From Rhynchopus sp. YZ270_cl-10 (Eukaryota): DNA of 64,000 bases. Location: NCBI GenBank assembly GCA_964035575.1, contig OZ037846.1:1054001-1118000 (forward strand), read 5' to 3'. The first letter of the stretch is position 1. Each line of letters opens with the position of its first letter. The notes under the pieces were generated by a model. It did no database searches, had not been told where the DNA came from, and was given only the letters and a program-made list of their open reading frames with translations. Made by a program: the position numbers and the translations under genes. Shown here one piece after another: positions 8,440 through 13,696 of the stretch.

Positions 8440-9630
8440 GTCATTGTTTCAGTTATTTGACAACAGTTCTGCAGGCGCACTTTCGTAGGGTACCTAATGT
8501 CACTATTTGGGCACATTTGGAGGTGTTGCAACGGTGCGCTCTTAAATCTGCCGTCATTGTTTCAGTTATTTGACAACAGTTCTTCAGGCGCACTTTCGTA
8601 GGGTATCTAATGTCACTATTTGGGCACATTTGGAAGTGTTGCAACGGTGCGCTCTTAAATCTGCCGTCATTGTTTCAGTTATTTGACAACAGTTCTGCAG
8701 GCGCACTTTCGTAGGGTACCTAATGTCACTATTTGGGCACATTTGGAGGTGTTGCAACGGTGCGCTCTTAAATCTGCCGTCATTGTTTCAGTTATTTGAC
8801 AACAGTTCTTCAGGCGCACTTTCGTAGGGTATCTAATGTCACTATTTGGGCACATTTGGAGGTGTTACAGCGGTGCGCTCTTAAATCTGCCGTCATTGTT
8901 TCAGTTATTTGACAACAGTTCTTCAGGCGCACTTTCGTAGGGTATCTAATGTCACTATTTGGGCACATTTGGAGGTGTTGCAACGGTGCGCTCTTAAATC
9001 TGCCGTCATTGTTTCAGTTATTTGACAACAGTTCTGCAGGCGCACTTTCGTAGGGTATCTAATGTCACTATTTGGGCACATTTGGAAGTGTTGCAACGGT
9101 GCGCTCTTAAATCTGCCGTCATTGTTTCAGTTATTTGACAACAGTTCTGCAGGCGCACTTTCGTAGGGTACCTAATGTCACTATTTGGGCACATTTGGAG
9201 GTGTTGCAACGGTGCGCTCTTAAATCTGCCGTCATTGTTTCAGTTATTTGACAACAGTTCTTCAGGCGCACTTTCGTAGGGTACCTAATGTCACTATTTG
9301 GGCACATTTGGAAGTGTTGCAACGGTGCGCTCTTAAATCTGCCGTCATTGTTTCAGTTATTTGACAACAGTTCTGCAGGCGCACTTTCGTAGGGTATCTA
9401 ATGTCACTATTTGGGCACATTTGGAAGTGTTGCAACGGTGCGCTCTTAAATCTGCCGTCATTGTTTCAGTTATTTGACAACAGTTCTTCAGGCGCACTTT
9501 CGTAGGGTATCTAATGTCACTATTTGGGCACATTTGGAGGTGTTACAGCGGTGCGCTCTTAAATCTGCCGTCATTGTTTCAGTTATTTGACAACAGTTCT
9601 TCAGGCGCACTTTCGTAGGGTACCTAATGT
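8440..9630 (+). repeat. 113-bp tandem array, 10 full copies plus 61 bp
   Basis: Unit GTCATTGTTTCAGTTATTTGACAAC...CTTAAATCTGCC starts at 8440, 8553 ... 9570; only a few recurrent variant positions. Confidence 0.97.
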
Positions 9631-12600
9631 TGGGTGGACGGATGCAGTGAAGTGCGTGGGTGACCTGGTCGGCAAGGATTGGGAGCACGGGAAGGAGGAC
9701 AGCAAGAGGTACGCCGCTGGTGTGAGCGGGTACATTGCGGTGCGGCACCTTCTCGGTCTGTTGCAGGGAAAGAAGACAACTTTCGTCAATAAGTTGTCGT
9801 GGGAGGAGGCGATGACTCTGCAGTGGAAGCTCTGGACGGGAACAGGAGGAGCCGCAGGCATTCGGGGGGAAGCTGCGCCGAAGAAGGATGGGTTCCTGAG
9901 CTTCTCAGTGTTGCAGCAACTTGTGGAGACGTGCACGGACGGAATGTGGGAACTGGCGGAACAAGACACTCCTGTTGTGAAGGATATGTTTGTGTGTGTG
10001 TGTGCGTACGACACGACGTCGCAGTTGGAGAAGGACCCCCAGAGGAGGCAAGGTTCGTACTACTCTGGGGTACGAATGGGGAACAACGGTGCCCATATGC
10101 GCTACTCTCTGCACGCCGCGCACTACGGATGTTTCAGCGCAGAGCTACAGAAGTTCAAGGCTGCTGTGATGTGGGTTGCGAAGGAGAAGACACCGGAAGA
10201 GCAGAGGACCCGGGTGGGGGGGGCCGGGGACGCGAGGTATTCCCGCATCCTCGGGATGAACGAGGCGCTGGCTGTGCGGCAGGAAGAAGCGAAGAAGCAG
10301 AAGGAGGAGGATGAGCGCGAGGTGGAGGAGACCACGAAGCGCTTCGGTGTAGACGTGGCGGCTCTGCAGTACAGGTATCTGTTCGGCACCGATCTGCATG
10401 TGACATGTGGCACAGGGCGGACGAAAAGGTTGCTAGAAGAGCATCGGATAGAGTCCGATCCCGTGACCTGCGAAGGTGCGTGGGCGTGCCTGAATTGGGT
10501 GCTGCAGTCGGTGTGCATGAAGGGACAACGCCACGTGATGCCGAGGATGCGATGGGAGCAAATGCAACACTTCCAGCAAGTTGCAAGCAAAGGACAAAGC
10601 GTGCAGTGGACGCCACAGCAGCTGCGCTGGAGAGGGTCGTTCGACGTGCATTGTGTGCGTGAAGCTGTCGAGACCTTGTTTTCTGGGGAATGGACAACCT
10701 CACATGTGCCGCTTCATTGGGAGGAGCCTCAGGAGGACTGGCCCTATGCGATGACGCTGTGCAAGGAGGAGCATCTGCGTGACAGTGTGCGCGCTCTCAT
10801 GTTTGAGAAAGAGCGACACTGGGTGGTGATTGTGGTGATGGCGTACACCCCTGGGGAGAACGAGGTTGTCACTCACTTTGTGGTGAAGGACACGGACAAG
10901 GAGGAGAAGAGCTTCAACCTCTTGGACGACGCCATCCTCTACGCCACAGAAGGGGATCCGTTATCCTGGGAGGATCCGCTGGTACTTGCTGTGAAGCGGG
11001 GGAGCTTCGTCGGTCGTAGGTGCAGCACTGTTGAAGGCCTACAGCTTTCGGCAATCCAGGGCCTGAACAGGTCTGTGTCGGATGAGCAGCTCCAGCAGGA
11101 GGCAGAGCAGTGGGCAGCGCGTTCGGTGAGTTCGCTACAGCGGACCATCAGCAGTGAGATCGAGCCTGTGATGGCTGCGGCATATGCGGCTGTTACGATC
11201 CGTCACGGCGACCTGCGGAACCACCTGTGGCAGCGGAGGGCAACGCCGCACGTTGTGTTTTCCTTGTGTGCCTTGGTCCGCAGCGGCATGCGTAGTGCTG
11301 TGCAGTGTGCGATCGATGAGACAGGGAAGGCCGCAGTCCTGACGGAATTGCTGCATAGCACTGCGGCAACAGAGTCACAAGGGTGTGTCTCTGACCCGAT
11401 GGACATCTGCAACACATCGTACCACGATGTTTGCGAGGACCCGGTACAGCGTGTGTTGTTCGCTCCCCGGACTCCCGCAGCAGTCCCGGTGGAAAGAGTG
11501 CAACAAGTGCATATGTCTCCCAAGGGTAAGCGTAAGAGAGTTGGGAGTGGGACTGTGCGTCCGAAGAAGCAGAAGCCACAGCAACAGCAGCAACCACAGC
11601 AGCAGCCACAGCAACCACAGCAGCAACAGCAACAACAGCAACAACAGCCTCACCAGCAACACCAGCCTCACCAGCAACACCAGCAACACCAGCAACACCA
11701 GCAACACCAGCAACACCAGCAACACCAGCAACACCAGCAACACCAGCAACACCAGCAACACCAGCAACACCAGCCTCACCAGCAACACCAGCATCACCAG
11801 CATCACCAGCAACACCAGCATCACCAGCATCACCAGCAACACCAGCCTCACCAGCAACACCAGCAACACCAGCAACACCAGCAACACCAGCAACACCAGC
11901 AACACCAGCAACACCAGCCTCACCAGCAACACCAGCATCACCAGCAACACCAGCATCACCAGCATCACCAGCAACACCAGCCTCACCAGCAACACCAGCA
12001 TCACCAGCAACAGCAAGAATTTGCGAAGGAGGCTGGCAAGAAGCGGAAGAGACGTGACTCTGATGATACTGATAGTGCTGCAAAGTCTCCGAAGGCTGCT
12101 GCCGAATTCTCTCAGAAGGAGGAGATTGATCTGCAGGCTGGCCTTGCTGCATCCCTGGATCAGCATCTGGAGGAGATTGATCTGCAGGCTGGCCTTGCTG
12201 CAAGCGTGATGGAGAAGGAGGAGATTGATCTGCAGGCTGGCCTTGCTGCATCCCTGGATCAGTGTCGGGAGGAGATTGGTGAGCGTGGCCAGAAGATCGG
12301 AGATGTGGAGGAGCTGAAGGCTGCAGCCGTTGCCAAAGCTGTATCCCGGCGGGAGCAGCAGGAACAGCAGATTCAGGCTGAGATGTTTGCCTCGTCTGAG
12401 TTGTCAGACACTGCTGCAACGCCGGTGTCGAAAGATGTGCACGCAGCAGAGAATTCCTTTGATTTAAGGAATTCTTGTGATTATTTCTTCCAGCTTTGGG
12501 AACTGGAACGCGTTCTTCGCCGTCTCGTGAAGGAGAGGGACGCTTTGGTTCTCCGCCCTTTGGGGGAAAGCGACCACGACTCTGTGCTCGAAGAGACGCT

Positions 12601-13696
12601 TTCTGCTCTGAGTTCTGGTAGGAAATGCGTGGGCATTTACAACGAGGGCCACATGCACTGGACTTCCTTTTGTGTGCGTGCTCGAGAAGACAGCTGCACA
12701 ACCCTTCAAGTCTTTTGCAAGGACTCCTTTGGAAAAGCGTGCATGCCGTTCCGCAATTTCTTTTCGCAGATGCTGAAAAAATCCTTGAAGGGTGCCAAGG
12801 CTACGTTCACCTCTCAAAGAGGAAACGGGGAGCAGAAGGACGGCTCCAGCTGTGGGCTCTTTGCAGTGCGAAATGCTGCACTCCTTGCGCGGTGTGAGTG
12901 GGATGAGTTCCGGTCGCTTTCCTTTTTTAAACAAAAGGACGTGGTGGCCCAGAGAATTGTTTTTGGCCTTCTTTTCTTCCTTGACGTGGGTCGTACGCTG
13001 CGTGAGCAATTGCTGGAACGGGAGATGCGTAAAACTGTGCGTGAGTTGGTCGACGCCCAGTACGGTGCAGAAATGCGTGCATGGGAGGAACAGGTGATTC
13101 GATTCCCCGGAATCGACTCAGTGCTTTGTGAGGTCAGGTTGAAGGGTGACTCCCTCACGGATTGCTTCCTGGCCCTTGAGGTGAAATCTGCAGACTGCGA
13201 GGCTCTCAGGCAGGTGGAGAAAGAGAGAGGCTGCAATGATCGGGTCGTAGTGACCGACAAAGGCCTGCTCGTGCTCCGCAGGCCGACAATCCGGACGGAA
13301 GTCGCCGACATCGACCGACGGATCGACATGGGCAACCTGCAGCGGGAGCTTAGGAAGGATTGGGCAAAGGATTTTCGTGATCGTGATCGTGAGAGGTACT
13401 TGGAGCTGCTCGACCCTTCTGTTTTTTTGCCGGATCCGCGTTCGCCTGTGATGGAAAAGTTCCAGGTCAGGTTCTGCGACATGGTTCTGGCACATGGTCT
13501 CGGGGAGACTGTTTGTGAGTCGATCCGGAAGAAGCTGTCGCATCTTGACGATGTGTTGAGAGAAAGGGGATCACAGGGGGACGATGTGCAGAAGATGAAG
13601 AATGCTGTGCAGGGGGTGCTGGATGATGCAGAGCAGCAGGACAAGGTGAGTGGCGACGTGCTGGAGAAGAGTCTGCATGATTTGGCGCATACGTAA
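9587..13696 (+). CDS. Element-borne ubiquitin/UBL protease-like protein: Josephin-like region, polyQ/QQH tract, 3 UIM-like repeats, Ulp1/C48 (CE clan) peptidase. Start uncertain (TTG 9587 lies in the repeat; first in-frame ATG 9812)
   Basis: 4.1-kb open frame; C48 order HW (12656), DS (12722), QKDGSSCG (12833-12856); [12 protein letters not shown] x3 (12119, 12170, 12218); [28 protein letters not shown]; basic NLS-like [14 protein letters not shown]. Confidence 0.8.
11580..12016 (+). repeat. Coding CAG/CAA and (CACCAGCAA)n repeat encoding ~145 aa of Q/H/P
   Basis: Directly visible, in frame with the 9587 ORF. Confidence 0.95.

Follow-up and report, generated by a model that had tools for sequence, protein, structure and literature searches.

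An 11.75-kb insertion with two open reading frames

In the 64-kb window, i.e. the whole stretch of DNA analysed, ORF1 (9563–13696, plus strand, 1377 codons from stop to stop) lies within an 11.75-kb insertion (7267–19017) bounded by short, imperfect inverted ends of ca. 45–56 bp. The left terminal inverted repeat (7267–7311) consists of 13 perfectly matching bp, an indel and a subterminal match and pairs with the right one (18962–19017), scoring 51 compared to a best value of 40 in 100 shuffles. Each inverted end directly adjoins one copy of an identical 9-mer (7258–7266 and 19018–19026), as expected for the 9-bp target-site duplication of the Mutator (MULE) superfamily, the terminal inverted repeats of which are usually long. 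Helitrons are not known to generate a target duplication; this element has one. The transposon-borne nature of ORF1, which an earlier sequence-only reading had asserted without documentation, is thereby placed on visible ends and an exact duplication. The DDE transposase expected inside a MULE was not found, as ORF1, ORF2 and 57 frames of at least 62 aa of the element gave no transposase match; movement would need a transposase in trans, and the element is likely a non-autonomous cut-and-paste transposon. The window contains neither an empty site nor another copy with the same ends; the 9-mer also occurs at 27433, but its unrelated flanks there speak against an empty site.

ORF2 (15111–15998, plus strand) is a 5′-truncated distant paralogue of ORF1 (24% identity over 223 aa, pairwise E 7e-6), which starts just past the position of the catalytic Cys of the CE-clan domain described below. 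Both frames share a C-terminal domain not assigned to a family (12900–13696 in ORF1, plus strand); a PD-(D/E)xK motif suspected there by eye gained no support from searches. Read contigs in two runs carry ca. 530 different bases upstream of 15110. A 25-nt motif (7372–7396, plus strand), located 105 bp inside the left end, recurs upstream of ORF2 (14748–14772) within a repeat-rich segment (14460–15105) matched by very many read contigs; these two matches compare to none in 100 shuffles, and a Helentron-type hairpin at the motif was dismissed as no stable fold was obtained. The 3′ tails of ORF1 and ORF2 are also alike (score 70 versus at best 45 in 200 shuffles). The upstream motif common to both frames and the left end, together with the similar tails, indicates a gene family tied to the ends of the element. 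A nested element with 70-bp inverted ends and a poly-T target occupies 16598–18911.

The 5′ end of ORF1 is probably damaged. A 113-bp tandem array of 10.6 copies (8438–9630, plus strand) runs into it and provides codons 1–15, counted from 9587, the start used in the sequence-only reading and kept here for numbering. The first in-frame ATG is located at 9812 (M76) and is preceded by two out-of-frame ATGs, and we give an even chance to this copy having lost its start. The N-terminal region (9635–10372, plus strand) remained without match in family searches, and a degenerate tyrosine recombinase, suspected by eye in aa 100–230, was likewise not supported. Its coding homology extends up to W17, the homologue P0004 being 81% identical to aa 17–48; this conserved coding sequence upstream of the first in-frame ATG is a point against the explanation preferred below.

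Only short, broken pieces were recovered as protein relatives. Fragments on three further contigs, 1.62, 2.71 and 1.43 Mb long as compared to 1.56 Mb for the neighbours of the window, are 70–89% identical (blastp), and the homologue P0005 (70% identical) retains the CE Gln and Cys. The homologue search yielded none among 7991 full-length candidates, one each among 7997 and 7995 shorter candidates and three among 1.84 billion representatives. None was located in viral or prokaryote contigs, and two weak metagenome loci (L011/L012) are regarded as chance matches. Read contigs of four runs show 0–2 differences over the parts that they cover. A diverged relative in run X2 aligns solely at 9722–9759 and 10472–10513, the latter corresponding to the helix around C301 (see below), and in two diverged relatives most of the changes listed alter the amino acid (8 of 12 codons in one, 5 of 5 in the other).

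The CE-clan domain and the low-complexity region

The C-terminal protease-like domain (12590–12900, plus strand) contains H1024 (12656), D1046 (12722), Q1083 (12833) and C1089 (12851) in the His-Asp-(Gln)-Cys order and spacing expected of the CE clan/Peptidase C48. RickCE (5ham) is the sole PDB match up to E 10 (E 0.56, not significant alone); it aligns with all four residues in register, a likeness extending to other CE-clan proteases (PMC4961225). Pfam C48 (PF02902) reaches 16.5 bits (E 0.0076) and stays below the gathering score of 20.7. A search of 40,199 six-frame residues with the H-D-Q-C pattern, which was devised after the sequence had been seen, gave a single occurrence, and 2000 shuffles gave none. 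The previous claim of an intact Ulp1/C48 protease thus stands on the full residue set and its alignment with RickCE, despite the Pfam score under the cut-off, while its span is corrected from aa ~960–1110 to about aa 1000–1110. The CE-clan assignment is well supported by sequence; the domain very probably adopts a real CE-clan fold with an intact triad, and cleavage of SUMO, NEDD8 or ubiquitin is predicted as its likely activity. The substrate is not readable from the fold, as CE enzymes include acetyltransferases besides proteases acting on SUMO, NEDD8 or ubiquitin (PMC4961225).

The region preceding the CE domain carries a Gln/His tract of 147 aa (11576–12016, plus strand; 89 Q, 48 H, 10 P). 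It had been termed polyQ; the longest pure Gln run is 10, and the DNA is a 9-bp minisatellite of 47.9 copies and not a CAG polyQ repeat. Two basic NLS-like clusters (aa 648–663, 11528–11575, and aa 818–823, 12038–12055, both plus strand) are consistent with the nuclear location suggested previously; that they direct nuclear import and that the Q/H tract serves as a flexible spacer appears somewhat more plausible than the opposite.

Three identical 12-aa acidic repeats follow (12119–12253, plus strand; starts at 12119, 12170 and 12218). They resemble the UIM consensus Acidic-Leu-x-x-Ala-x-x-x-Ser (L229/A232/S236 in ataxin-3) with Leu and Ser in place and Gly at the Ala position in 3 of 3 repeats, giving Leu-x-x-Gly-x-x-x-Ser. 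The repeats and the exchange are present as noted earlier; their UIM identity lacks a match in the Pfam UIM profile scan of ORF1. Ala-to-Gly is one of two exchanges that are combined to abolish binding by a UIM (PMC2965175), which renders the formerly proposed ubiquitin binding doubtful, and we regard it as rather unlikely. A complex prediction of ubiquitin (viral-contig copy P0006) with aa 836–900 scored 0.01, which gives no verdict either way.

A second protease-like domain

Upstream of the tract, aa 280–470 probably form a papain-fold domain (10424–11000, plus strand) with the candidate triad C301 (10487), H411 (10817) and D435 (10889). The open frame and every motif quoted in the sequence-only reading are indeed present, the Cys-helix motif at 10475 (aa 297), a second motif at 10634 and the His motif at 10787. 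Among the Atlas neighbours of aa 280–470 the four named ones shown, Toxin_15, Josephin, Herpes_teg_N and Peptidase_C58, are papain-like; their scores are 0.76–0.80, a range attained in a third of cases by shuffled proteins, and the Josephin cluster (0.78) has its family assigned to 38% of its members. These neighbours and the ordered motifs described below point to the fold. The AlphaFold and Foldseek check suggested earlier added low-confidence models (pLDDT 36 for aa 15–645 and 33 for aa 280–481, without alignment), for which Foldseek returned no match at E ≤ 0.001 and VIA-align, on a single-sequence model of low pLDDT, a best Z of 3.4 for a beta hairpin. Profile searches on this region were all negative or marginal.

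The more specific claim of a Josephin domain is not upheld. Pfam Josephin (PF02099) gave no match at E ≤ 10 in ORF1, and our own HMM from 29 fetched Josephins scored –0.3 bits, a value equalled or exceeded by 43 of 1000 shuffles. In place of the Josephin Cys, His(+3) and Asn-Asn, ORF1 has G297, A300 and N303-W304, the His at +3 being shared by all 29 fetched Josephins, a set chosen by that motif. The register at G297, which faces C14 of ataxin-3 with 6 of 11 matching residues around the Cys helix, ranks 87 of 1337 positions, and the His-to-Asp spacing is 24 compared to 15–21 in 16 Josephins. Four ordered Josephin blocks pick G297, F352, H411 and D435 unprompted, as equalled by 5 of 1000 shuffles and 3 of 146 decoys (ordered-motif p about 0.005–0.02). 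Their score, obtained with spacing limits widened after the target had been seen, is –2.2 versus 13–118 in real Josephins, and in a scan over the whole ORF1 the CE domain scores higher (4.2) than aa 280–470.

The pattern W-x-C-x5-Q-[ST], seen in UFSP of C. elegans, is kept in the register at C301. Of the W-G-C-x-Y-R-x-x-Q-[ST] helix of C78, the W, C, Q and S are kept and the Gly and Tyr-Arg are missing, and C301, H411 and D435 follow the C-H-D order of the ZUP1 type. C301 ranks first of 1337 positions versus one C78 protein, the only true one obtained from 9 loci, with a score that favours any Cys. Pfam C78 (PF07910) found no match in ORF1 (positive control L049, 36.6 bits). C295 is a less likely nucleophile; a diverged relative has, by eye, a Gln there at the loose end of its alignment. 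The Cys-to-Gly exchange on which a Josephin pseudo-enzyme had been proposed is real in the G297 register, but that inference depends on this one register. As C301 fits the UFSP/ZUP1-type register of the catalytic Cys better than the Josephin one, a possible intact triad emerges, and we tentatively consider its use as an active site instead of a dead Josephin, at less than even chance.

Proposed role and relation to known systems

As the best explanation, favoured at about even probability, we propose that ORF1 is carried as cargo by a cut-and-paste transposon, likely a non-autonomous one, and codes for a predicted nuclear two-protease enzyme, composed of a CE-clan domain with four catalytic residues and a likely papain-type domain, which would strip ubiquitin or ubiquitin-like tags from nuclear proteins. 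The element family might benefit from a transposase or chromatin kept free of SUMO/ubiquitin marks, a tentative analogy to roles of transposon-borne proteases proposed, not shown, elsewhere. A bolder and unlikely version envisages a family of protist transposons whose cargo is a free-standing nuclear enzyme uniting active proteases from two clans: the triad C301-H411-D435 would belong to an unclassified papain-type DUB intermediate between Josephin and ZUP1/UFSP and, together with a CE-clan SUMO/NEDD8 protease and aimed by Gly-type UIMs, would erase SUMO and ubiquitin marks on element chromatin or transposase.

Three other explanations compete with the cargo enzyme. That an ataxin-3-like set of dead Josephin, polyQ and three UIMs is fused to an active Ulp1, so that the CE protease is guided by a Josephin domain and UIMs binding ubiquitin, would account for the Cys-helix matches to ataxin-3, the ordered Josephin blocks, the Josephin cluster among the Atlas neighbours and the Leu and Ser of the repeats; it has a low probability given the absent Pfam Josephin and UIM matches, the own-profile score, the rank of the G297 register, the long His-to-Asp spacing, the Q/H tract with all three repeats behind it and the Gly in place of the key Ala. 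About equally improbable is a passenger in decay, either a protease gene of host or foreign origin, taken up in the manner of a Pack-MULE, or a piece of another element nested between the inverted ends, which is now losing its 5′ end and is of no use to the element. The array across the 5′ end, the out-of-frame ATGs, the truncated ORF2, nested insertions, broken relatives and absent transposase speak for it, whereas 4.1 kb are still open with all CE catalytic residues kept, read contigs of four runs hardly differ, and the genes are connected to the element by the upstream motif that they share with its left end and by the likeness of their 3′ tails. Least probable of all is that protease function is confined to the CE domain and aa 280–470 represent an unrelated alpha/beta domain with papain-like Cys, His and Asp motifs by chance; the profile searches would agree with this, but the ordered-motif statistics, the papain-type neighbours and the C301 helix as the part kept by a diverged relative argue against it.

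Ubiquitin/SUMO proteases have been repeatedly recruited by unrelated DNA transposons. A stand-alone cargo pairing a CE-clan with a second papain-type domain would, if true, extend such recruitment to a lineage without intact relatives in the searched databases, and the second domain may then define a new DUB subfamily. In ataxin-3 the polyQ precedes UIM3, whereas all three ORF1 repeats follow the tract.

The ataxin-3-like module set claimed before is not supported in that form in view of the missing profile matches, the module order and the Q/H tract, and the likeness to ataxin-3 (Josephin C14/H119/N134, UIMs, NLS, polyQ; PMC11088879) is only partial. Both proteins have ordered papain-type motifs, a tract rich in Gln, clusters of basic residues and three helices of UIM or UIM-like type; ORF1 lacks the catalytic Cys and following His in that register, differs by its Q/H minisatellite and Ala-to-Gly UIMs, and adds a 160-aa helical region, the CE domain and the C-terminal domain. 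ZUP1/Mug105 and UFSP (Peptidase C78; PMC5824887) resemble ORF1 in sequence motifs, namely W-x-C-x5-Q-[ST] at C301 and the C-H-D order (C360/H491/D512 in ZUP1), and in separate modules for ubiquitin binding, putative in ORF1, beside the core; the His-to-Asp distance in ZUP1 is 21 versus 24, and ORF1 is devoid of a Pfam C78 match, the Gly before and the Tyr-Arg after the Cys.

Transposons carrying Ulp1, OTU or VTD proteases are already known, and some of the proteins contain two. Ulp1 or OTU domains in proteins of Ginger1, Mutator and Helitron elements and a Trichomonas transposase-C19 fusion (PMC2836005) likewise place ubiquitin/SUMO-type cysteine proteases on DNA transposons, also in a protist, but fused to a transposase, which ORF1 lacks. 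Helitron VTD (+OTU) deubiquitinases, with activity shown and 121 elements carrying two DUB classes (PMC9741609), offer a precedent for a double protease on a transposon; they have a D-x-H motif in RepHel proteins, in contrast to the C-H-D order and CE-clan partner in ORF1. The pairing of a CE-clan and a papain-type domain in one transposon-borne protein had no match in the literature searched. The KAONASHI (KIU)/VANC genes of plant MULEs, which encode a Ulp1 domain and have been connected with evasion of silencing (PMC13317346), share with ORF1 a Ulp1-type domain in a gene apart from the transposase and a location in a MULE-type element, a candidate one in the case of ORF1. KIU elements belong to the non-TIR Vandal MULEs of plants and the demethylating activity is ascribed to VANC, whereas the ORF1 element has inverted ends, shows no VANC or transposase match and adds a second protease-like domain.

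The ORF1 element and its surroundings

The long frame ORF1 (9563–13696, forward strand; residues counted from base 9587) is uninterrupted and lies within an 11.75-kb element (7267–19017). An identical 9-mer at 7258 and 19018 adjoins inverted ends at 7267 and 19017, which show 13 perfect bases and, after an indel, a subterminal match; their alignment scores 51, against 40 for the highest of 100 shuffled controls. These features bracket ORF1, as expected from the sequence-only reading of a transposon-borne gene, and ORF1 is real and transposon-associated. The 9-bp target duplication presumably points to the Mutator group, but this assignment is weakened by the shortness of the inverted ends and by the lack of a transposase match in ORF1, ORF2 or any of 57 small frames. 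Most likely, the element would be moved by a transposase in trans. An empty site was not found within the 64-kb window.

The element contains a 113-bp array, ORF1, a segment at 14460–15105, the 5′-truncated ORF2 (15111–15998, forward strand) and, nested within it, a further element that has 70-bp ends. Very many read contigs match 14460–15105; their depths add up to as much as roughly 100 times that of ORF1 or more, depth not being a copy number. ORF2 is a distant paralogue of the C-terminal part of ORF1 (24% identity over 223 aa); a 25-nt motif lies upstream of both units, their 3′ tails are similar, and in contigs from two runs ORF2 is preceded by about 530 bases that differ from those here. 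Four ORF1-related protein fragments (61–127 aa, 70–89% identical by blastp), on contigs whose three lengths differ from that of the contigs with the window's neighbours, are read as probable decayed, dispersed copies.

The first 15 codons of ORF1 are supplied by the 113-bp array; a possible parallel is Diplonema, where genes with tandemly repeated copies of their own 5′ region have been described (PMC10161547). The first in-frame ATG is M76, preceded by two out-of-frame ATGs. Because homology precedes M76, at aa 17–48 (81% identity to the short protein fragment P0004) and at aa 46–58 (read contigs from a diverged relative), the family's protein begins further upstream, and in this copy the start would be either lost or spliced. 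All four covering runs disagree with the window base at 12476 (Cys964 to Arg), which may thus reflect a mistake in the assembly or a copy that is rare.

Genes without introns neighbour the element: cyclase-like, PAN-domain and GH92. An array (2444–60517) comprises at least nine cyclase-like paralogues, membrane-anchored and intronless; 21604–23691 matches Guanylate_cyc (E 8e-21) and 19393–21120 has no Pfam match, so some paralogues carry only a degenerate cyclase-like domain. The GH92 alpha-mannosidase gene (62440–63999; Pfam E 9e-88) is still open at the window end, and 23191–27341 duplicates 1–4151 (98.5%). An adjoining element with 37-bp inverted ends (4429–7229) encloses a 1.2-kb near-perfect palindrome (4559–5752) whose arms are about 96% complementary, together with an inner inverted pair (5875–5898/6323–6346) and 42 tandem copies of a 7-bp unit. 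A 460-bp dispersed repeat (93%) occurs in the nested element (17088–17545) and in a distant intergenic region (57430–57882), and 17520–17690 also matches 5970–6126. Long simple arrays of 5-, 7- and 8-bp units (29680–30892, 16833–17061) give spurious open frames.

Predicted protease domains of ORF1

The CE domain (about aa 1000–1110) is solidly predicted. At E<=10, aa 951–1130 matched a single PDB entry, RickCE, and all four catalytic residues fall in register (His, Asp, Gln, Cys; H1024-D1046-Q1083-C1089), which supports the proposed intact Ulp1/C48-type protease although the Pfam C48 score (16.5 bits) lies below the cut-off of 20.7. The ordered catalytic pattern, set post hoc, occurs once in the window and in 0 of 2000 shuffles. 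Since the CE clan includes proteases for SUMO, NEDD8 or ubiquitin as well as some acetylating enzymes (PMC4961225), the substrate is not fixed by clan.

The middle domain (aa 280–470), previously read as Josephin-like, had no match in Pfam, PDB, PHROGs or NCBIfam. Environmental viral contigs hold many and varied proteins with the Josephin motif; of 41 such domains, the 29 kept at <70% identity (3 Pfam-checked) were made into a profile, which gave -0.3 bits, equalled or exceeded by 43 of 1000 shuffles (750 scored). Four ordered Josephin blocks, from 16 of the 29, select G297, F352, H411 and D435 with a score reached by 5/1000 shuffles and 3/146 decoys under spacing limits widened once the target had been seen; this score (-2.2) compares with 13–118 for Josephins themselves and is exceeded by that of the CE domain. 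Atlas neighbours, a lead only, were Toxin_15, Josephin, Herpes_teg_N and C58 (scores 0.76–0.80). The block outcome and these neighbours make a papain-type fold likely.

Two registers compete for the active site. Of 11 residues compared with ataxin-3 in the Josephin register, on which the suggested pseudo-enzyme depends, 6 agree, but neither the catalytic Cys nor the His expected at +3 remains, and this position comes only 87th of 1337. The UFSP register ranks higher (1 of 1337 at C301, for one sequence and with a score that favours Cys): C301 becomes the nucleophile, and W, C, Q and S/T are shared with UFSP of C. elegans and with a C78 protein from a virus, but the Gly and Tyr-Arg of the UFSP family are absent. 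The C78 (UFSP-like) protein is encoded on a giant-virus contig (L049:841–1533; Pfam 36.6 bits). A contig from run X2 matches only 9722–9759 and 10472–10513, the latter being the C301 helix, as expected if the site is constrained; against selection count the listed changes in two other relatives, which are mostly non-synonymous (17 of 23 and 8 differences listed). A second protease with the candidate triad C301-H411-D435 is plausible, and its C-H-D order is that of ZUP1 (PMC5824887).

Comparison with ataxin-3 and transposon proteases

All motifs quoted in the sequence-only reading were located in ORF1 where it had placed them, and its analogy to an ataxin-3 module set proved overstated. The "polyQ" is a Gln/His tract encoded by a 9-bp minisatellite (89 Q, 48 H and 10 P, with at most 10 Gln in an unbroken row), and the module order differs from that of ataxin-3. 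Ataxin-3 UIMs contact ubiquitin via Leu, Ala and Ser (PMC2951365), and a double change of Ala to Gly and Ser to Asp abolishes UIM binding (PMC2965175). In all three UIM-like repeats of ORF1 the key Ala is replaced by Gly, and Pfam detected no UIM in them. Given the Gly, the missing Pfam UIM, the Q/H tract and the different order, descent from ataxin-3 appears very improbable.

Most likely, the ORF1 product would act in the nucleus as a protease on ubiquitin-like tags, to the benefit of the element family. Among the titles and abstract openings listed by searches of a collection with few subscription journals, no Josephin and Ulp1 pairing on a transposon was found, in agreement with the earlier statement. 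Other proteases of this kind are known from transposons: plant KAONASHI/VANC genes carry Ulp1 domains (PMC13317346), in line with the sequence-only reading, Ginger1 and Mutator proteins also contain Ulp1, Helitrons carry OTU and a Trichomonas transposase C19 (PMC2836005), and Helitron VTDs are active, with OTU added in 121 elements (PMC9741609).
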